Shown: positions 13,310 through 58,682 of the stretch, one piece after another | Layout: every line of letters begins with the position of its first letter | How positions within the stretch are numbered: position 1 is the stretch's first letter | Source: a bacterium | Lineage (GTDB): Bacteria > Desulfobacterota > JAPLJL01 | Reading direction: 5' to 3' | NCBI GenBank assembly: GCA_028713675.1 | Contig: JAQTNV010000011.1 | Location: forward strand, 4,411-68,410 | DNA: 64,000 nucleotides | Notes under the pieces: model-generated | The model's database searches: none | What the model was told of the DNA's origin: nothing | What the model saw: only the letters and a program-made list of their open reading frames with translations | Made by a program: the position numbers and the translations under genes

Positions 13310-13486
13310 TTAGGTCATAGGTGATAGGTTAAAACCCAACACCCAATACCCATCGTGTCTATTGTGTCGTCGTGTTCCTTGTGTCTATTGGGTCGAATTA
13401 TCCAATTATATTCTGACGCTACGGATTTATCCCGAAGGGTTTATCTGAGGGACTCTATGAACCCTAAGAACACAATGGATCATTAT

Positions 13487-14392: not shown

Positions 14393-14629
14393 CTCACCTT
14401 TCCATTTATAGGTTATGGGTCATAGGTTATGGGCGAAACGCATCACCCATTACCTGTTATTTGCTACCTGCTACCTGCTTTCTTTTTCTTTCCTTTCTAT
14501 CAGAAATCACGGTTTCTGCAAATATATTGATTACCCGGCGATTTAATGAAAAAATATGCTGGTCCCCAACAATGATTGAATATTCCGGTCGTCTTCCATC
14601 CCGGGAAGGTTGGGGCCGAGGGAGGAAAA

Positions 14630-16243
14630 ATGCCGAGGAAGAGAACCATGCCGAAAAAGTTTGACGTGGCGGTGGTGGGCGCCGGGATCTCGGGTCTCAC
14701 CTGCGCCAATTACCTCGCCCGGGGAGGCAAAAAGGTGGTCCTGCTGGAGCAAAACCACCAGGCCGGCGGCTGCATGTCGGGTTTCTGGCGGAAGGATTTT
14801 TATTTTGACGGCGGTGACCAGTCCTTCGAGAGCACGGGGATCGTCTTTCCCATTCTGAAGGAACTCGGAGTCTACGACGAGCACGACTGGCACCAGGTGC
14901 ACTACCGGGCCAAGACCCCCGACTGGGATTTTGTCGTCACCTCCCTCGAGGACACCCGCGACCGGATCATGGCGGCCTTCCCCGGCGAGCCCGGGGTCAA
15001 AGCCATTTTCGCGGAGGTGGAAAGATGCACGGATTTCCTTTCCGGTCTGTGCGATCCCTGGCATTTCCCTCTCCTGGAAAAGCCCAAACCCCGGGACATC
15101 CTCTACCTGATCAAGTGGCTCCCCGAAATCCAGCGCTGGAGCGACTACAGCTTCAAGGAGCGGCTCTGCGCCCAGATCCGGCAGGAGGACCTGCGCAACT
15201 GGTTCCTAAACGCTGGTTATTACAAGATGCCCTTTATGCTTTTCGGCGGCTTCTGGTATGCCTGGGTCAAGGATTACTGGTACCCGGCCGGCGGGCTCCA
15301 GAGCCTGATGGACAGCCTGGTCAGGAAATTCGAAGGACTGGGCGGGGTGGCCCGCTTTAAGACCCCGGTCAAGAAGATCCTGGTCGCGGACGGCGAGGCT
15401 TCCGGCATCCTGACCGGCGAAGGAGAGAAGATCGAAGCCGAATACGTGGTCTACGCCGGGGATTACAAGCGGCTGGTTTCCCAGGTGCTGGGGTCAAAAT
15501 ACTTCGATCTGGATTTCGTCCAGAAGGTCGAGCGGAGCCGGCTGACCGAGAGTTTGGTCGCGGTCTACTTGGGACTCGATATCCCCCCCGAGGAAATGAA
15601 ACGGCATCTCCAGACCCATCACGTGATTTACACTCCGAACCTCGACGTGATCTTCCCCGGCCGGGACTCGGAGCGCGAGGTGCATCAGAAGATGTGGATG
15701 GAGCTTTCCTCCCCGAGCGTGGAAAACCCCGCCCTCGCCCCTCCCGGAAAATCCTCCCTCGTCCTCCAGACTTTCAGCCACGCGGAGTGGCAGGATCACT
15801 GGAACAACCGGGGCGAGAGCCGGGAAAGAACCTCCGAATACCGCGATTTAAAGAAGGCGGTGGGGATGGAGCTGGCCAAGAATGCCGAGGCGGTCATCCC
15901 CGGCCTCACCGAAAAGATCGCTTATATGGACGTGGGCACCCCCCTCTCCTCCGCCCGCTTCACCATGAACAGCGGGGGCGCCTCCGCGGGCTGGACCTAC
16001 AGCCTCACGGACCTGCCGATCGCGAGTAAGTACGGGTTCACCAGTTTCCGCACCCCCGTGCGGAAGCTCTACACCATCGGCCATTACTCCTTCTGGCCCG
16101 GGGGAGTTCCCAACTCGGCCTTGAGCGGCAAGATCGTGGCCGGGTTTATTCTGAAGAACCCGCTTCTCGGCCGCCTCGACCGGGCGATCGAACTCATCCA
16201 GAAACTGAGGCAGAGCCCCCTGGTCAACGCGTTCCGAAGCTGA
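14630..16243 (+). CDS. FAD-dependent oxidoreductase of the phytoene desaturase (CrtI-like) family
   Basis: It has a VVGAGISGL dinucleotide-binding motif and a C-terminal CrtI-like block. A strong SD (GGGAGGAAAAATG) sits at 14630. Confidence 0.7.
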   Translation: MPRKRTMPKKFDVAVVGAGISGLTCANYLARGGKKVVLLEQNHQAGGCMSGFWRKDFYFDGGDQSFESTGIVFPILKELGVYDEHDWHQVHYRAKTPDWDFVVTSLEDTRDRIMAAFPGEPGVKAIFAEVERCTDFLSGLCDPWHFPLLEKPKPRDILYLIKWLPEIQRWSDYSFKERLCAQIRQEDLRNWFLNAGYYKMPFMLFGGFWYAWVKDYWYPAGGLQSLMDSLVRKFEGLGGVARFKTPVKKILVADGEASGILTGEGEKIEAEYVVYAGDYKRLVSQVLGSKYFDLDFVQKVERSRLTESLVAVYLGLDIPPEEMKRHLQTHHVIYTPNLDVIFPGRDSEREVHQKMWMELSSPSVENPALAPPGKSSLVLQTFSHAEWQDHWNNRGESRERTSEYRDLKKAVGMELAKNAEAVIPGLTEKIAYMDVGTPLSSARFTMNSGGASAGWTYSLTDLPIASKYGFTSFRTPVRKLYTIGHYSFWPGGVPNSALSGKIVAGFILKNPLLGRLDRAIELIQKLRQSPLVNAFRS

Positions 16244-16275
16244 AATTGACTAGGTTTTAGGTGATGGGTGTTAAC

Positions 16276-16743
16276 CTATGACCTATCATCGATTATCTTG
16301 AATAACTCCTCGTTTTTCGGGATGTCGCTCATGCTCCTGCTGTAGTAGGAGTATTGAACCTTTCCGTCCTTGCCGATCACGAAAAGCGCGGGCATCCGGC
16401 CGAGCCTGATCAGGTGGACCTTCTGTTGGTAGAGGCCCGCCACCAAGCCATCGTCGTCGGGCAGGCCGATATAGTTCAGGCTTTTTTTCTTCCACATCCG
16501 GGCAAATTCATCCGGGGTATGCTGGCCCACCACCAGGATCTCCGCCTCCCGGGATTTGAATTTCTCGTAATCGGCCTGGAGCACCTCCAGGTGCCGTCGG
16601 GCAAAAGGTCAGCCGAAGCCGCGCAACAGGACCAGCACCACGATCTTTTTTCCGAGATAATCGGAAAGTTTCACTTCCCGGCCCTGGTAATCCTTCAGGG
16701 TGAAATCCGGGGCTTTTGTCCCCGCCGTGATGTCGCTCATCAT
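16276..16743 (-). CDS. peroxiredoxin-like 2 (SelU/PRXL2-type) thioredoxin-fold protein with in-frame TGA at the active-site position (candidate selenoprotein, otherwise pseudogene)
   Basis: A strong SD (AAAAGGAGACC) precedes the ATG at 16743. Forty-four codons (MMSDITAGTKAPDFTLKDYQGREVKLSDYLGKKIVVLVLLRGFG) run to a TGA at 16611..16609. The same frame continues (PFARRHLEVLQADYEKF...) for 102 more codons of Prx-like sequence. The TGA sits where the family has the first Cys of C-P-F-C. A 7-bp hairpin (CCUGGAG-GUG-CUCCAGG) lies 17 nt downstream of UGA. Confidence 0.5.
16575..16591 (-). promoter_or_regulatory. candidate bacterial SECIS-like hairpin downstream of in-frame UGA
   Basis: The hairpin is a perfect 7-bp stem with a G-containing 3-nt loop. 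Its apex is about 25-27 nt from the UGA, within the spacing range of bacterial SECIS elements. Confidence 0.4.
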
Positions 16744-16934
16744 GGTCTCCTTTTCGAATAATTAGGTGATCGGTTGTAGGTCATAGGTTATAGGTTATGG
16801 GTTAAGGAAAACCCAACCCCCGGGCTTCTTTAAAACCCAAGAAACCCAACGGACCGTTTTTGTTCTTTCGACACTATAGACACAATGGACACTATGAACT
16901 CTATGAACGCCTAACCTCTTACGCCTCACATCTC

Positions 16935-16990
16935 ACGCTTAGCGGCCTTCTGTCTACCGTCTACCGTCTACCTTCTGCCGTCTACCTTCT
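16935..16990 (-). repeat. GGTAGAC heptamer array overlapping the stop codon of the HIT gene
   Basis: The minus strand reads AGAAGGTAGACGGCAGAAGGTAGACGGTAGACGGTAGACA. The TAG stop lies inside the first unit. Confidence 0.6.
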
Positions 16991-17461
16991 AACTTTTTTC
17001 AGCATCCTGGCCGTCTTGGCCAGCTCCGCCGGGTCCCGCATCCGGACGAGTTCCCCCGGGGCTTCCTGGATCTTCTCCAGGGCGTTGAAAAAACGGTCTA
17101 GGAGATCCCCGCTATAAGTCGGGATCAGGAAAATATGCACATGCGGGATCCTCCGGCCCCGGGCATACATGCAGACAAAATCCGGTTTCAGCGTCTTGCT
17201 GATCTTGCGGGCCACCGTCCGGGCCGTCCGGAAAAGATCCATCGTCTCTTCCTCCGAAAGATCGTGCCACCAGACCACGTGCCGCTTCGAGATCACCAGG
17301 CAATGCCCCTGGGCGAAGGGGAAAATGTCCAGGATCGCGAGGGAATGTTTGCCCTCGTGAACCCGGTGGGCCCGGGCTTTCCCCGCGACGATATCGCAAA
17401 AAGCGCATTTCTTACCGTGGGTTGCCGCCATAATTTTTCCTTTCCTCCCGGTTACTTTCAT
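16982..17461 (-). CDS. HIT family (histidine triad) hydrolase
   Basis: It has the HVHIFLIP histidine-triad motif. An N-terminal Cys pair (CAFCD) is typical of HIT proteins. An internal ATG at 17431 is an alternative start. Confidence 0.8.
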   Translation of the reverse strand: MKVTGRKGKIMAATHGKKCAFCDIVAGKARAHRVHEGKHSLAILDIFPFAQGHCLVISKRHVVWWHDLSEEETMDLFRTARTVARKISKTLKPDFVCMYARGRRIPHVHIFLIPTYSGDLLDRFFNALEKIQEAPGELVRMRDPAELAKTARMLKKVRR

Positions 17462-24332: not shown

Positions 24333-26438
24333 ATGTCTAATCGCTTAGCCGCCGAGAAAAGCCCCTACCTGCTCCAACACGCGGACAATCCCGTGGACTG
24401 GCACCCCTGGGGCCCCGAGGCTTTCGACCGGGCCCGCGTGGAAGACAAGCCGGTCTTTCTCTCCATCGGCTACTCCACCTGCCACTGGTGCCACGTGATG
24501 GAGCGCGAGTCCTTCCAGGACCCGGAAACCGCCGGCCTGATCAACGAGGTTTTTATCCCGGTCAAGGTGGACCGGGAGGAACGGCCGGACCTCGACAATA
24601 TTTACATGACCGTCTGCCAGATGATGACCGGCCAGGGCGGCTGGCCCCTGACGATTTTCCTGACCCCGGACAGAAAGCCCTTTTTCGCCGGCACCTACAT
24701 TCCCCGGAAAAAAACCTTCGGACGGATGGGCCTCTCCGAACTTATCCCGCGGATCCGGGAGCTCTGGAAAAACCGGCGCCCGGAGCTGGTCTCCTCCGCG
24801 GAAGAATTGGTCTCCCTGCTGAAAGAAGCCGGCCGCGATGAAAAGGGCGAGGATCTGGACGGATCTATCCTGGAACTCGCCTACCGGGCCCTGGCCCAGG
24901 ATTTCGACGACGAGTTCGGCGGGTTCGGAAAAGCCCCCAAATTCCCCACCTCCCACAACCTCTTCTTTCTCCTCCGTTACAACCAGCGCTCCGGGAAAAC
25001 CTTCGCCCTGGAAAAGGTTGAAAAAACCCTGCAGGCCATGCGGCGGGGCGGGATTTACGATCACGTGGGTTTCGGCTTCCACCGCTATTCCACCGACCAA
25101 AAATGGCTGGTTCCCCATTTTGAAAAGATGCTGTATGACCAGGCCCTGCTGGCCCTGGCCTATACCGAGGGTTACCTGGCGGCCGGGAACGAAGAATACC
25201 GGCGCACGGCCGAAGAAATATTCGCTTACGTCCTGAGAGACCTGGCCGATCCGGCCGGCGGTTTTTATTCCGCCGAAGACGCGGACAGTGAAGGGAAGGA
25301 AGGTAAATATTATCTCTGGACCGAGGAGGAAATTCGCCGGGCCCTGGACCCCGCCGAAGCCGATTTTGTCCTCCGGACTTTCAACCTGGAAAAAGACGGC
25401 AATTTCATTGATCCGCTCATCGGGGAGAAAAACGGGAAAAATATCCTCCATCTCAGGGGCCTGCTTTCCGAACCGGCATATCGGGAAAGGTGGGAAAAGG
25501 CCCGGATCACGCTCTTTAATTCCCGGGCCCGGCGGGTCCGCCCTTTCCGGGACGATAAAATCCTCACCGACTGGAACGGCCTGATGATCGCCGCCCTGGC
25601 CCGGGGGGCTCAGGCCTTCGGACTTCCGGTTTATGCGGAGGCCGGGAAAAAAGCGGCGGATTTCATTCTGAAAAATCTCCGGGACCCGGCCGGCCGCCTC
25701 CTCCACCGCTACCGGGACGGCCAGGCGGCGATTCCCGCCCAGCTTGATGATTACGCCTTCCTGATCCTGGGGCTTTACGAACTTTACGAAGCCACTTTTG
25801 AGGTCCGCTTCCTGGAAAAAGCCCTGGAGCTCTGCGGCCGGGCCATTGAATACTTCTGGGATGACCACTCCGGCGGGTTCTTCCTGACCGCGGGGGACGG
25901 GGAAGATCTGCTGATCAGGCCCAAGGAGTTTTCCGACGGCGCCATCCCCTCCGGTAATTCGGTGATGGCCCTGAACCTCCTCCGCCTGGGACGGGTCACC
26001 GCCAATCCCGATTTCGAGACCCGGGCCCAGGCCATCGGACGGGCGCTTTCCCGCGAAGCCCGGCAATCCCCCTCCGCTTTCACCTTTCTCATGACGGCGC
26101 TGGATTATGCCGTCGGACCCACGCTCGAAATCGTGATCGCCGGAAACCCCGGGCGGGAAGATACCCGGGAAATGCTCCAGGCGCTCCGGAATGAGTATCT
26201 CCCCAGCGCGGTGATCATTCTCCGTCCCACCGACGAGGATGCTCCCGGGATCGTCCGCCTGGCCGGGTTTACCCGCGAGCTTAAAAGCCAGGGGGGCCGG
26301 GCCACGGTTTATTTCTGCCAGAACTGCCGCTGCGAGCTTCCCACGACCGACCCCCGGAAGGTGCGGGAGCTGCTTTCGATCTTCAACAAAGACACCGGCC
26401 CCGCCTGCAAGTCCCCCGGGCCGAAGGATCCCGCGTAA
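24333..26438 (+). CDS. thioredoxin domain-containing protein (YyaL/DUF255 family, SPATA20-like)
   Basis: It has N-terminal [21 protein letters not shown]-terminal (alpha/alpha)6-like region follows. Confidence 0.85.
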
Positions 26439-35278: not shown

Positions 35279-35426
35279 CAAAAAACAGGGGAAAAACGGT
35301 TGCTGGGTGGTTAGGTTGTTAGGTGGTTCAAAAAACGAAATAAACGATCTAAACGTTCTGAGCGCTTTGCGCTTTGTTCTTTACCTATCACCTATGACCT
35401 ATCACCCATGACCTTTTTTCCCGGCA

Positions 35427-38944: not shown

Positions 38945-39664
38945 CTAAAATGCATAGCCGACATTTAATCGACACTCACCTTTATTAATCGACGGAAGAA
39001 TAAACACCTTCTGCATCCCTATTTTTTTATTATATCGACCAGCCGCCAGAGGAGCATCAATCATTTCGTATGAATAAATTGTTCCCAACCCGACAAATCC
39101 TATAATCATCATGAGTTTATATTTAAATGATTTATCATAACGATTATTACAATGTTCTGATTCATAATCACCAATACACGAAATACCTTCGCCAACGTCA
39201 TAAAATAACATTCCATACATAATTATAGAAGGAACTGCCCAAGAAGCAGCCTTAGCTCCCACCAACCCCCAGGTTTTACCCGGATGGTCCCTGACATAAT
39301 AATGATTAGGAATGGTCAGATAAGTTAAAGGCGCGAAAATTGTTAACGAAGAAATATACCAGAATCTGGCCAGATCACTGCCAACATTTTCCTGGAACCC
39401 TGTTCTTTCCAACCCCCATGTTAACAACCCGCTCACAATCGCCGGCATGATTGCCAGGCCAAAGGCTATTTCTGGTGACTTTGGTTTATCAATTATATTG
39501 GTATCACCAGGAATGGATGTAATCCCGCTCGAATAAGTTTCCCCGTTACCGGCCGCCAATCTCAGCTCATTGGGGAGCAAGCTATATCCATATGAATTAC
39601 CGGAATAAATTAAGAGTATCGTGCAGAAAATAAAAAAGGACTTTTCTCTCATTATATTAAGCAT
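38945..39664 (-). CDS. hypothetical polytopic membrane protein in low-GC island
   Basis: It has 4-5 TM helices and an AGGA SD before the ATG at 39664. GC is about 38%. Confidence 0.4.
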   Translation of the reverse strand: MLNIMREKSFFIFCTILLIYSGNSYGYSLLPNELRLAAGNGETYSSGITSIPGDTNIIDKPKSPEIAFGLAIMPAIVSGLLTWGLERTGFQENVGSDLARFWYISSLTIFAPLTYLTIPNHYYVRDHPGKTWGLVGAKAASWAVPSIIMYGMLFYDVGEGISCIGDYESEHCNNRYDKSFKYKLMMIIGFVGLGTIYSYEMIDAPLAAGRYNKKIGMQKVFILPSINKGECRLNVGYAF

Positions 39665-39693
39665 TTGAAATCCTGATTTGTTCAGCGCGGGAT

Positions 39694-39753
39694 AAACTCT
39701 AGCAGGAATCCAGATTGAAAATACTGGATTCCGGGTCAAGCCCGGAATGACAA
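39694..39753. repeat. MITE-like element copy C (left end degenerate)
   Basis: GCAGGAATCCAGATTGAAAATACTGGATTCCGGGTCAAGCCCGGAATGAC, with compensatory changes in the right hairpin. Confidence 0.55.
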
Positions 39754-39846
39754 TCAAAACAAATGAAATCTTTGCTTACCACACAATGAAAATACTTTTT
39801 CTTTAATATTTTAATTGCTTTCTGGGAAGTTTCCGTCAGAAAGACT

Positions 39847-40092
39847 TTATAACTCATCCCAAACCTCTTTCCATCCCTTAACTTTTCCTTCCCGGATTTC
39901 TTTCAAGCCCCGGCTGACGATTTTTTTGAATTCCTTGGACCGGGAAAGAATTTTCGCTTCCCGTTGATCCGCCAACTCGGAAAGAAGAGATAATAATTTC
40001 TTGTATTCTTCCACCGGAAGAATCACCGCCTTGGGCTTGCCTTTATCGTCGATAATGTACTGCGCAGCTTCTTCTTTGATTAAATATTTCAT
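39847..40092 (-). CDS. Phd/YefM-like type II antitoxin candidate (orphan)
   Basis: A GGAGGG SD precedes it. The KAVILPVEEYKKL block resembles the Phd/YefM core. No toxin ORF is downstream. Confidence 0.4.
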   Translation of the reverse strand: MKYLIKEEAAQYIIDDKGKPKAVILPVEEYKKLLSLLSELADQREAKILSRSKEFKKIVSRGLKEIREGKVKGWKEVWDEL

Positions 40093-40290
40093 CCTTTTCC
40101 CTCCAAATTCAAAGACATTATATATATAAAATATCTTCGGCCGGAAAATATAGATTGTCAAATTTGGGCAGAGGGACGGTAGACCACGGATGTTATATCG
40201 GGAAATAGCGAGATCCTTCGCTCCGCTCAGGATGACAGAAAAAAATGATCAGAATAACAGAAAAAATGATCAGAATGACAATCTAAATAA

Positions 40291-56255: not shown

Positions 56256-56310
56256 TAAAACCCATGACCTATGACCCAATGCCTATCACCTGATTCCACC
56301 TGCTTACTGC

Positions 56311-57384
56311 CTACTTATCAATTTTCAATTCCCTGTCGATGATTTTCTCCAGGCCCGCGAGTTCCGGGAAAAGGGCGAAGCGGGGACGGATCCTCCGGAG
56401 GACGCCCGGGATGAAGGGGAGAAACTTCGGGTTGTCTTTTACCCGCTTGATATAGGCGAACCGGCCGGCCGCCTTCAGACCCCGCTGGACCCCGGCCAGG
56501 TAAAACATCCGGCGGAAGGGTTCACGCCCGTCCGGTTTCCCCCCCGCCTTTTCCCAGGCGGAAAGATAGTAATCGAGAAGTTCTTCGACCAGGTCGGGGG
56601 TAAAATCCACGTACGCGTCAAAGAGAAGCGAGGCCAGGTCATACTGGCGGAGGGCCAGGAGAGCGTCCTGGAAATCGATGATCTTGATCCCGCCGTCCTG
56701 GACCAGGAGGTTCCGGCTGTGATAATCCCGGTGGCAGAAATACCCCCGTTCCTCCGCGAGTTCCCGGGCGAGTTTCCGGAACCCCCGCTCGAGTTCGGGG
56801 GCCTCGGGAAGCCCGGAGGGCAGGAGCTCCTCCCGGAAGTGCTGAAACTCCCATTCGAAAAGTCCGGCGTCGAACCGGCGGTGAAAGGCCAGGCAATCCG
56901 GGTCGGGCCGCCGCTCGGCCCTAAGCTGGAGCTCGACCAGGAGTTCCAGCGCCTGGTGATACAAACTCAGTTCCGCCCGCGGGCCGGCCGGGAGGGCCAG
57001 GTCGTAGAGCAGGGTGTCGCCCAGGTCCTCGAGGTAAATAATCCCCCGTTTGAGATCGTGATAAACAACCCGGGGGACCGGCAGTCCCAGTTTTTCCAGG
57101 TAGCGCTGGAGATTGAGAAAGGGAATTTCGTCGCGGGGTTTTTCCCCGGCGGTGATCTCTTCCGCCGGCTGGCGGTGGGGATCGGCGTCGGCCAGCACCA
57201 TCAGGATCAGGGATTTCGCCCCCGCCCCGGAAACCCGGTAGTAACTCCGGTTGGAGGCGTCCCCGGGCAGGCGGATCACCCCGGGATTTTCCGGAAGCCT
57301 GATCCCCTCCGGCAGGGCCCGGAAAGCCGCGGGGAAAAACCCCGGTTCCTGCGCCCGGTCCCGGGATCGGCCTCCGTTTTCCAT
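56311..57384 (-). CDS. aminoglycoside-phosphotransferase-fold kinase (AmgK-like anomeric MurNAc/GlcNAc kinase)
   Basis: It has an APH-fold catalytic loop (CHRDYHSRNLLV) and IIDFQDA. The likely start is at 57384 (MENGG...). It pairs with the MurU-like gene. Confidence 0.65.
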   Translation of the reverse strand: MENGGRSRDRAQEPGFFPAAFRALPEGIRLPENPGVIRLPGDASNRSYYRVSGAGAKSLILMVLADADPHRQPAEEITAGEKPRDEIPFLNLQRYLEKLGLPVPRVVYHDLKRGIIYLEDLGDTLLYDLALPAGPRAELSLYHQALELLVELQLRAERRPDPDCLAFHRRFDAGLFEWEFQHFREELLPSGLPEAPELERGFRKLARELAEERGYFCHRDYHSRNLLVQDGGIKIIDFQDALLALRQYDLASLLFDAYVDFTPDLVEELLDYYLSAWEKAGGKPDGREPFRRMFYLAGVQRGLKAAGRFAYIKRVKDNPKFLPFIPGVLRRIRPRFALFPELAGLEKIIDRELKIDK

Positions 57385-58682
57385 CAGACTTCGAACGGAT
57401 CCCGGATCACGACGGTCTGCCCGCGCTCCGCTCCCAGGGAAAGGATAAGGACCGGGATCCCGGTCAATTCCTCCACCCGCGCGAGATAGCGCCGCACCGC
57501 CGGAGGAAGGTCGGAAATCCGGCGCACCGCGCCCAGGTCCTCCCGCCAGCCCGGGAGATCCTCGTACTCCGGCTGGCACTCGGAAAGGATTTTCAGGTCG
57601 GCCGGGAACTCGGTCAACCGTTCCCCTTTGTAACGGTAAGCCACCGCCAGGCGGATCGGGTCGAGCCCGGAGAGGACGTCGATCTTGGTCAGGGCCAGCC
57701 CGCCCAGGCCGTTGAGCCGGCTGGCGTAGTTCAGGGCCACCAGGTCCAGCCAGCCCGTCCGCCGCCGCCGCCCGGTGGTGGCGCCGAATTCCCCGCCCGC
57801 CTCCACCAGCCGGTCTCCGGTCTTATCGAAAAGCTCGGTGGGAAAGGGGCCGGCACCGACCCGGGTGGTGTAGGCCTTGGTCACCCCCACCATCAGGAGG
57901 GAGAGCCGGCCGTAGCCCAGGCCCGACCCGGAAAAGATGCCCCCGGAGGTGGTCACCGACGAGGTGACGAACGGATAGGTTCCGTGATCGAGGTCGAGCA
58001 TGCTCCCCTGGGCGCCTTCGAAAAGGATCCGGCTGCCTTTCTTGATTTCCTGGTCCAGGATCCGGGAGGTGTCCGCGATCAGGCCCCGGATTTTGCTCCC
58101 GAAATCCAGGAAGGGCTCGAGGATCTCACCCAGGGTGAAGCCTTTTCCCCCCAGGACTTTTTCAATGTAGGCGTTGTTTTCCTCCAGGTTGACGGCGAGC
58201 TTCTTTTTGAATTCCTCTGGATCGAGCAGGTCCCCCACCCGGAGCCCGGACCGCCGGGCCTTGTCCTCGTAGGCGGGGCCGATGCCTCGGCCGGTGGTCC
58301 CGATTTTCGCCGCCCCCCGGCGCTCCTCCCGGAGCACGTCGATCCGCTGGTGGTAGGGCATGATCAGGTGGGCCCGGTCGCTGAGGCGGATCCGGTCTTC
58401 GTTTTCCAGAAAGCCGGAGCTCTTCAGGCGGGCGATCTCCTCCACCAGGACCTGGGGATTAACCACCACCCCGTTCCCGATCAGGCAGAGCCGCCCCGGG
58501 CGGAGAATTCCGGAGGGGACGAGGTGGAGAACAATCTTCTGGTTCCCGATCACGCAGGTGTGTCCCGCGTTGTTCCCGCCCTGGTAGCGCACCACCACGG
58601 GGGCCTTCTCGGTCAGGAAGTCCACCACCCGGCCCTTGCCTTCGTCGCCCCACTGCGCGCCGAGAATTCCGACTCCTTGCAT
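57384..58682 (-). CDS. purA: adenylosuccinate synthetase
   Basis: It starts GAQWGDEGKGRVVD and carries the GGNNAGHT P-loop. Confidence 0.9.
   Translation of the reverse strand: MQGVGILGAQWGDEGKGRVVDFLTEKAPVVVRYQGGNNAGHTCVIGNQKIVLHLVPSGILRPGRLCLIGNGVVVNPQVLVEEIARLKSSGFLENEDRIRLSDRAHLIMPYHQRIDVLREERRGAAKIGTTGRGIGPAYEDKARRSGLRVGDLLDPEEFKKKLAVNLEENNAYIEKVLGGKGFTLGEILEPFLDFGSKIRGLIADTSRILDQEIKKGSRILFEGAQGSMLDLDHGTYPFVTSSVTTSGGIFSGSGLGYGRLSLLMVGVTKAYTTRVGAGPFPTELFDKTGDRLVEAGGEFGATTGRRRRTGWLDLVALNYASRLNGLGGLALTKIDVLSGLDPIRLAVAYRYKGERLTEFPADLKILSECQPEYEDLPGWREDLGAVRRISDLPPAVRRYLARVEELTGIPVLILSLGAERGQTVVIRDPFEV

Follow-up and report, generated by a model that had tools for sequence, protein, structure and literature searches.

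A very probable, unannotated Prx-like selenoprotein gene with a cysteine-free U-x-x-A motif in a Desulfobacterota contig

Selenoproteins of the peroxiredoxin (Prx)-like kind have been known since 2004-2005 (PMC1088965, PMC2398784, PMC13188914). The group termed 'Prx-like 1' belongs to pfam00578, carries selenocysteine (Sec, U) in a UxxC or UxxU motif, has WP_010940744.1 as its representative, and occurs in Geobacter, Syntrophus and Desulfotalea (PMC1088965, PMC2398784, PMC1794560, PMC9312934, PMC13188914). It is listed with the motif UxxC and with 225 Sec and 2,740 Cys sequences in the Global Ocean Sampling (GOS) data (PMC2398784 Table 2), and its function is predicted only (PMC1088965, PMC2398784 Table 2, PMC1794560, PMC9312934, PMC13188914). 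Lone-Sec motifs are on record elsewhere, in GPx (UxxT), ArsC (UxxS), DsbA 3 (UxxV) and OsmC-like proteins (UxxT) (PMC2398784 Table 2). No U-x-x-A form of a Prx-like protein stands in the motif tables of PMC2398784, and a 2026 review makes no mention of one. Here we describe a minus-strand gene in a 64-kb stretch of a Desulfobacterota contig (JAQTNV010000011.1; the whole stretch is called the window below). Sequence comparison indicates that it is very probably a real, unannotated selenoprotein gene of the Prx-like kind that has lost the second redox residue.

A single reading frame spans the TGA. Direct reading of the minus strand within 16150-16850 gives AAAAGGAGACC, then ATG ATG AGC. From the first ATG, 44 codons run to GGC TTC GGC (peptide end VLVLLRGFG) and are followed by TGA at 16611..16609. 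The same frame then continues with CCT TTT GCC CGA CGG CAC CTG GAG GTG CTC CAG, as far as TAG at 16278..16276, and the peptide encoded directly after the TGA starts with PFARRHLEVLQADYEKF. The features of the gene are as follows.

16276..16743, minus strand: predicted selenoprotein gene, complete, 154 or 155 codons including one Sec codon (from the sequence, its translation, Pfam, orthologue starts and the ratio of nonsynonymous to synonymous substitution rates, dN/dS)
16609..16611, minus strand: in-frame TGA, the predicted Sec codon, residue 45 from the first ATG (from conservation of the TGA column and alignment to the Prx motif)
16600..16602, minus strand: GCC, Ala48, at the resolving-Cys position of U-x-x-C (from the family alignment and the alignments to 2ywn and 2cx3)
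16749..16754, minus strand: Shine-Dalgarno sequence AAGGAG, 8 nt before the second ATG (from direct reading)

The joined product has 155 amino acids from the first ATG (16743) and 154 from the second (16740). The second ATG is probably the true start, because the orthologues begin MSD, MSE or MND; a GGAG context also precedes the start in the orthologues. An earlier interpretation made from the letters of the window (the sequence-only reading) had described the strong Shine-Dalgarno sequence, the 44 codons ending VLVLLRGFG and the TGA at 16611..16609, and these coordinates and peptides all match the sequence. Its count of 102 codons after the TGA has to be corrected to 110, as 102 is the length of the open reading frame (ORF) from an internal GTG at 16584.

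The TGA occupies one conserved column of a widely distributed family. We read 33 family genes as DNA, a set that combines database homologues with relatives from scans of genome and metagenome collections and that spans down to ~40% protein identity. The codon at the window's TGA column is TGA in 29 of the 33, TGT in two and TGC in two, and neither TAA nor TAG occurs there. An alignment of homologues at the TGA had been suggested as a check by the sequence-only reading, and it returns Cys or TGA in all 33 genes. The Sec forms come from metagenome-assembled genomes (MAGs) labelled Anaerolineae/Chloroflexota, Dehalococcoidales, Bacillota and Proteobacteria. The MAG labels for two of the four Cys forms are Ignavibacteriaceae and Zixibacteria, and the remaining two are on unlabelled metagenome contigs. 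In homologues lacking the TGA, Cys always stands at its column, and such a Sec/Cys pair is the signature used to define selenoproteins (PMC13188914). The TGA aligns with the Cys of P0004, L012, L016, L088 and L099, where the motif is GF[x]CP[FY]C. This bears out the view that the TGA falls at the first Cys of a C-x-x-C redox motif whose second position is Ala in the window gene.

Database records of the closest homologues are fragmentary. The joined product, with U written as C, was used as the query, and the seven closest database matches (84-44% identity) are C-terminal fragments only, of ~100 amino acids. The contigs of all seven carry split calls, an ORF of 40-43 amino acids plus one of 94-108, and in all five of these that were read as DNA the interruption is a TGA at the window's exact column. 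An exhaustive profile search returned 562 cluster representatives at E <= 0.001. Among the top 150, the Sec column is absent from 133, of which 78 start no more than 12 columns after it. Cys occupies the column in 13 (CxxC in nine, CxxS in two, CxxT in two) and Trp in four (P0043, P0094, P0108 and P0137, e.g., RGFVWPFC). Translation of TGA under genetic code 4 or 25 probably explains the Trp calls. Sec forms make up ~85% of the classifiable family representatives.

In one relative, L091 (Ga0116141_10080811), another TGA interrupts the frame ~30 codons before the Sec codon (DYA*KKNV), at a position where other members have Gly or Asn. The copy may be damaged or misassembled, or the codon may be a second site of recoding.

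Two hairpins follow the UGA, and each is a candidate selenocysteine insertion sequence (SECIS).

16575..16591, minus strand: hairpin H1, CCUGGAG-GUG-CUCCAGG, 7 bp, loop GUG, UGA-to-loop distance 24 nt, -9.9 kcal/mol; agrees with the bacterial SECIS (bSECIS) model
16580..16595, minus strand: hairpin H2, GGCACC-UGGA-GGUGCU, 6 bp, loop UGGA, UGA-to-loop distance 19 nt, -8.0 kcal/mol; agrees with the bSECIS model

The bSECIS model specifies a loop of 3-9 nt, a stem of 4-16 bp, G in the first two loop positions, a UGA-to-loop distance of 16-37 nt and a minimum free energy <= -7.5 kcal/mol (PMC13188914 Fig. 2). A bacterial SECIS check had been proposed from the sequence, and the window passes it twice, with H1 and with H2. 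H1 starts 17 nt after the UGA and is the perfect 7-bp hairpin that the sequence-only reading had described; H1 and H2 overlap and are mutually exclusive. In the window clade (the window gene, L001, L002, L004, L086 and L087; L002 and L087 are near-identical, so that there are five distinct sequences, with 83-90% nucleotide identity among them), H1 is 91% paired and shows a G-C to U-A compensatory change in L004. The upper helix of H2 is 96.7% paired in the same clade, with one mismatch, in L004, and H2 is the only hairpin that passes the bSECIS test in L001, L002, L086 and L087. H1 sits at the location of the covarying class-B hairpin described below. The SECIS would be either H1 or H2; which of them is uncertain, as the five distinct clade sequences do not separate the two.

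The evidence for an RNA element is much stronger at the level of the family, where the hairpin accompanies the TGA codon. A strict contiguous-stem bSECIS test is passed by 23 of the 29 Sec forms and by none of the four Cys forms (Fisher P = 0.005), and no bSECIS hairpin follows any of the 13 natural TGA stops in the window. We distinguish class A (peptide R-A-Q-L-A-R: L005, L007, L009, L010, L015, L089, L090, L092 and L095-L098) and class B (peptide H-L/M-A-Q-L-R: L006, L008, L011, L013, L014, L091, L093, L094, L100 and L101). The class B hairpin, GGCGC-AGUU-GCGCC, lies 19-36 nt after the UGA with 89% of cells paired. Compensatory changes are found in four of the seven pairs of its helix, a result equalled by none of 500 shuffles, and pairing collapses in every slid register. 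Class B Sec forms encode Gln-Leu as CAG-TTG in 10 of 10 cases and Ala as GCG in all nine that have Ala; the four Cys forms encode the corresponding peptide through GCA/GCC/TCT, CAA, CTC/CTG and AGG/CGG, and the hairpin is abolished. The class A hairpin, GCGCGC-AGUUG-GCGCGC, lies 11-27 nt after the UGA and is 98.6% paired but nearly invariant, and so supplies no covariation evidence. Between class A and class B, the hairpin GCGC-AGUU(G)-GCGC stands in two registers 9 nt apart within an ungapped protein alignment, and one subgroup has the Ala-Gln-Leu peptide at +5..+7, the other at +8..+10. It appears that the RNA element determines which amino acids stand there and that it has shifted its place in the coding sequence. 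A permissive Rfam search of the gene gave nothing relevant, its one match being a chance snoRNA at E = 0.43.

The pairing of hairpin and TGA bears on whether selenium is involved at all. The UGA might be read without selenium, by near-cognate insertion of Trp, Cys or Arg or under a code in which TGA is a sense codon, and the four database representatives called with W at the column would fit such a reading. It is nonetheless very unlikely. The W calls are most simply a product of gene calling under code 4 or 25, every non-TGA homologue has Cys at the column, and the SECIS-type hairpin goes with TGA and not with Cys codons. Furthermore, TGA is the normal stop of 13 window genes, including purA at its canonical 432 amino acids.

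Both sides of the TGA are under purifying selection. Across the 15 in-register pairs of the window clade, the median dN/dS is 0.10 in the N-terminal part, 0.18 in the segment from the TGA to the GTG (the nine codons before the internal GTG) and 0.21 in the C-terminal part. Values range from 0.07 to 0.40 over both sides plus the stretch covered by neither ORF, with dS maxima of 0.66 (N-terminal) and 0.59 (C-terminal). The family genes read as DNA showed no frameshifts. The gene therefore combines TGA-bearing orthologues elsewhere with conservation on both sides of the TGA, which together are one of the generic marks of a selenoprotein. A TGA in frame, at a column where homologues have Cys and with coding sequence to either side, is far more than chance would produce.

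This conservation also decides against a pseudogene, that is, a Cys-containing Prx-like gene that took a recent nonsense mutation and whose halves are decaying. Such a history would account for gene callers splitting the gene into two ORFs everywhere, for the lack of visible Sec machinery in the window and for the second in-frame TGA in L091. It is highly improbable given dN/dS of this order on both sides and in the uncovered stretch, an intact frame, a downstream hairpin that is conserved and covarying, and a TGA held at its column in 29 of 33 genes from distant lineages, never replaced by another stop codon. That the locus encodes two separate small proteins, a 44-residue peptide and a 102-residue protein from the internal GTG, is hardly credible, even though both ORFs have start codons and both are called as genes in public data. 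The two pieces jointly make up one AhpC/TSA domain with one compact predicted fold; no Shine-Dalgarno sequence is evident before the GTG, and the internal start positions vary between orthologues. The P-F/Y-A/C-R-R-H-L stretch, moreover, lies in neither ORF yet is under purifying selection. A sequencing or assembly error at 16609-16611, masking a TGT or TGC codon that a single-base change would restore, has a negligible chance of being correct, with the same TGA present in five more genes of the window clade, which come from separate public contigs and samples, and in 23 more distant genes. Nonsense mutation and sequencing error had been raised as alternatives by the sequence-only reading, and both are excluded because the TGA is kept in independent assemblies and distant lineages. 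Overall, TGA conservation, selection and the use of TGA as an ordinary stop make the pseudogene, error, reassignment and two-gene explanations very unlikely.

The putative selenoprotein is related in fold to peroxiredoxins. Pfam AhpC-TSA matches residues 8-131 at 84.5 bits (cutoff 26; 7e-24), spanning the TGA, and Redoxin matches too. The sequence-only reading was right that both halves look like one thioredoxin-fold AhpC/TSA-like protein, as this match runs across the TGA. AhpC-TSA, the pfam00578 domain that defines Prx-like 1, is matched by 17 of the 17 family members tested. Placement in the PRX_like2/SelU family has to be given up: Pfam AhpC-TSA_2 (PF13911), which we take to be the model covering SelU/PRXL2, has no match in the window protein, in which AhpC-TSA and Redoxin do match, and is matched by only two of the 17 members, at E = 0.003. 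The window protein stays below the cutoff of every NCBIfam model. It scores best with NF040769 ('SelL-related redox protein'), at 70.8 bits where the cutoff is 120; only its N-terminal half aligns (residues 10-91, profile positions 2-83 of 173). All 17 members match NF040769, the best at E = 4.5e-24. The PrxQ and PrxU models of NCBIfam score 27-28 bits vs cutoffs of 260-270.

Alignment to known structures places the Sec column at a thioredoxin-like position. When the family profile was compared with the Protein Data Bank, the best matches were archaeal BCP peroxiredoxins (2ywn/4g2e, 3drn and 2cx3) and ResA (E from 3e-18 to 5e-15). In the 2ywn and 2cx3 alignments, the Sec/Cys column falls on the conserved Thr of P-x-x-x-T-x-x-C, which is the N-terminal position of a thioredoxin-like CxxC, and the second Cys column, where the window protein has Ala48, coincides with the peroxidatic Cys of true peroxiredoxins. 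The Pro position of the Prx motif is Arg in the window protein. Pro118 falls on the Prx catalytic Arg in the 2ywn alignment, with an invariant Arg116 two residues earlier. The Prx catalytic triad is absent, because Thr is replaced by Sec, the peroxidatic Cys by Ala and the Arg by Pro118. An AlphaFold model of the Cys homologue P0004 (pLDDT 90.2, pTM 0.86) has its first Cys directly before helix 45-56 and after strand 33-38, and superposes on Bcp1, Bcp4 and AhpE with template modelling (TM) scores of 0.81-0.88. As modelled, the protein is a Prx scaffold with a thioredoxin-type U-x-x-C centre.

Three other family assignments were tried and rejected. SelU/PRX_like2 is ruled out by the Pfam model scores together with the active-site alignment. 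A true peroxiredoxin (BCP/PrxQ or PrxU) is ruled out, as the catalytic motif and Arg are lacking and the model scores are far below the cutoffs. A SelL-related protein is ruled out by the subthreshold NF040769 score and the active-site alignment.

The window clade is a variant without any cysteine. All six of its genes have G-U-P-F/Y-A and no cysteine anywhere in the protein. The equivalent of position 48 is Ala in all six and Cys in the other 27 family genes. The other 23 Sec forms are U-x-x-C and so have the UxxC or UxxU motif that the window gene lacks, its Sec position being the expected one. P0063, a Cys cousin 43% identical, is C-R-Y-S, and other Cys forms are CxxS or CxxT. The occurrence of Ala, Ser and Thr at the second redox position suggests more than one loss of the resolving residue, whereas only Sec or Cys occurs at the first position.

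We propose that the UGA at 16611..16609 is recoded as Sec by a SelB/Sec-tRNA(Sec) system, guided by an mRNA hairpin 17-34 nt downstream of the UGA, H1 or H2. SelB recognises its SECIS in a species-specific manner. The product would be a ~154-residue protein with a BCP-like Prx fold and a thioredoxin-like redox centre in which Sec takes the nucleophilic N-terminal position of C-x-x-C and directly precedes the first helix. The selenolate would attack an oxidised substrate, which may be a disulfide, a sulfenate or a peroxide, and the resulting selenenylsulfide or selenenic acid would then be resolved by an external thiol, not by an internal Cys. With no cysteine in the protein, this would make it a single-selenol enzyme. 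We put forward only tentatively the joint proposal that the Cys-free U-x-x-A offshoot is functionally distinct, with chemistry on a BCP scaffold that is nearer to that of GPx than to thiol:disulfide exchange, and that a two-register SECIS dictates the peptide; it seems to us possible, though somewhat short of probable.

Several observations weigh against the selenoprotein interpretation or against parts of it. Neither selA, selB, selD nor tRNA-Sec was found in the 64-kb window: Pfam on 20 large window ORFs gave no selA, selB or selD, ARAGORN found no tRNA genes and hence no tRNA-Sec in the window or at 28 Sec-form loci, and Rfam at gathering thresholds had no match in the window. There is no second TGA-interrupted gene in the window, all 76 raw candidates being shadow frames or ordinary stop-codon extensions. 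H1 had been called a plausible bacterial SECIS; it does pass the bSECIS criteria, but taken alone it is at chance level, and H2 fits equally well. The fold of the region is not significant (z = -0.86 vs shuffles, z = -0.80 vs synonymous recodings), and the chance rate of passing the bSECIS test is 14.6% among recodings and 10% among the in-frame positions of window genes. The window hairpin by itself is weak evidence, not separable from chance. Of the five other sequences in the window clade, four (L001, L002, L086 and L087) have a G.A mismatch in H1, and six of the 29 Sec forms fail the strict contiguous-stem test. The AlphaFold model is a proxy, being that of P0004 (42-45% identical) and not of the window protein, and the single-selenol mechanism of Sec45 is one that we infer from its sequence.

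The gene looks stand-alone in its genomic surroundings. Its neighbours and a repeat in its leader are as follows.

14576-16243, convergent: FAD amine-oxidase-like gene, convergent neighbour (Pfam)
16982-17461, minus strand: HIT-family gene, upstream neighbour (Pfam)
16776..16803, minus strand: tandem heptamers AACCCAT AACCTAT AACCTAT GACCTAC in the 5' leader/promoter region of the selenoprotein gene (repeat search)

A terminator-like hairpin lies between the HIT-family gene and the selenoprotein gene, and further neighbours are a DctP solute receptor, an SDR and an MFS transporter. The HIT neighbour is kept in those window-clade contigs in which the upstream flank is seen, while distant relatives have other neighbours, and it is this difference that makes the selenoprotein gene look stand-alone. 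Gaps in the window gene map fall at an APH-like kinase, a TonB-dependent receptor and a low-GC island. The window appears to come from a deep lineage on the basis of its PurA (57384-58682), which has uncultured relatives at 71-93% identity and, beyond these, matches at only 53-58%, mostly MAGs labelled Deltaproteobacteria or Desulfobacterota orders. The close uncultured PurA relatives (87-93% identity) occur in several metagenomes.

The heptamer (AACCTAT, GACCTAT, AACCCAT) is dispersed in the window, with 10 matches vs 0.09 expected by chance. Sites lie on the minus strand at 13317-13330, 14408-14428 and 16776-16803 and on the plus strand at 16273-16286, 35382-35402 and 56259-56272. The three minus-strand copies stand directly upstream of the starts of the MFS transporter, SDR and selenoprotein genes, a position that suggests a shared operator or leader element, and the repeats are a possible regulatory element. 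Similar repeats are found upstream of the L001 and L004 orthologues and downstream of the L086 orthologue; L001 also has (GCCCTTT)x5 upstream.

Two further loci in the window were recorded. The gene for a further thioredoxin-fold redox protein, a 701-residue DUF255/Thioredox_DsbH thioredoxin-domain protein (Pfam 1e-76), lies 8 kb away from that for the selenoprotein, at 24333-26438 on the plus strand; no TGA was seen in its frame. The low-GC island spans 38945-40290 in a window that is otherwise 58.6% GC. Its ORFs encode a Phd/YefM-like antitoxin (MKYLIKEEAAQYIIDDKGKPKAVILPVEEYKKLL...) and a membrane-protein-like product of 270 amino acids, and the island may be a small mobile insertion.

Public data misrepresent the window gene and hundreds of relatives, which appear there either as a pair of small ORFs or with a W in place of Sec. 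As the window protein matches no curated NCBIfam model at its cutoff, annotation pipelines may go on splitting genes of this sort; a dedicated model would help. If the W calls are artefacts of code 4 or 25, selenoproteins are hidden as 'W' proteins in large catalogues. A family that is mostly Sec with a Cys minority, and in which the resolving Cys has repeatedly been lost (to Ala, Ser or Thr), is a natural system for comparing Sec with Cys at the CxxC nucleophile. It is also suited to asking whether the single-selenol forms serve another purpose. If true, the two-register SECIS would be a clean natural case in which an RNA element sets the protein sequence and changes its place inside a coding region. 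As an example of RNA structure constraining codons and amino acids it is a small case, and current understanding is not overturned.

Among known systems, fold and motif set several families apart from the window protein. BCP/PrxQ (2ywn/4g2e, 3drn, 3hjp and 2cx3) and PrxU (TxxU) share the fold, with TM scores of 0.82-0.88 to Bcp1 and Bcp4, but in the window family Sec or Cys stands at the Thr position of Prx, and the window protein has Ala in place of the peroxidatic Cys. SelU/PRXL2 resembles the window protein in being thioredoxin-fold, Prx-related and equipped with a C-x-x-C-type motif. SelU has Sec in place of the first Cys, and its SECIS elements lie in the 3' untranslated region, as in eukaryotic selenoprotein genes generally. 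SelU is a eukaryotic family (PMC3473315). SelL, which differs from the window protein in having two Sec residues (UxxU), has tandem domains. It has been described as 'a Prx-like protein' (PMC2398784). GPx, ArsC, DsbA 3 and OsmC-like proteins have U-x-x-[non-Cys] in thiol-oxidoreductase folds and so offer a precedent for single-selenol chemistry in which an external thiol does the resolving, although their folds or families differ from those of the window protein.

The closest kind, judged from domain and motif, is that of the bacterial Prx-like thiol:disulfide oxidoreductase selenoproteins (pfam00578, UxxC), which are already known. Like Prx-like 1, the window family belongs to pfam00578, has Sec first in U-x-x-C, as opposed to the T-x-x-U of Sec-peroxiredoxin, and has Cys homologues with CxxC. 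The window gene also shares with Prx-like 1 a SECIS hairpin, here a predicted one, within the coding sequence just after the UGA. This kinship is one of domain and motif; the subfamily with the pattern RGFxUPxCR...GRMPA...SMxDIP may be that of WP_010940744.1 or a distant one. The window clade departs from the UxxC/UxxU motif of Prx-like 1 in being U-x-x-A without any Cys. Thus, the kind of selenoprotein is known and its occurrence here would not surprise a specialist; what differs is the Cys-free U-x-x-A form.

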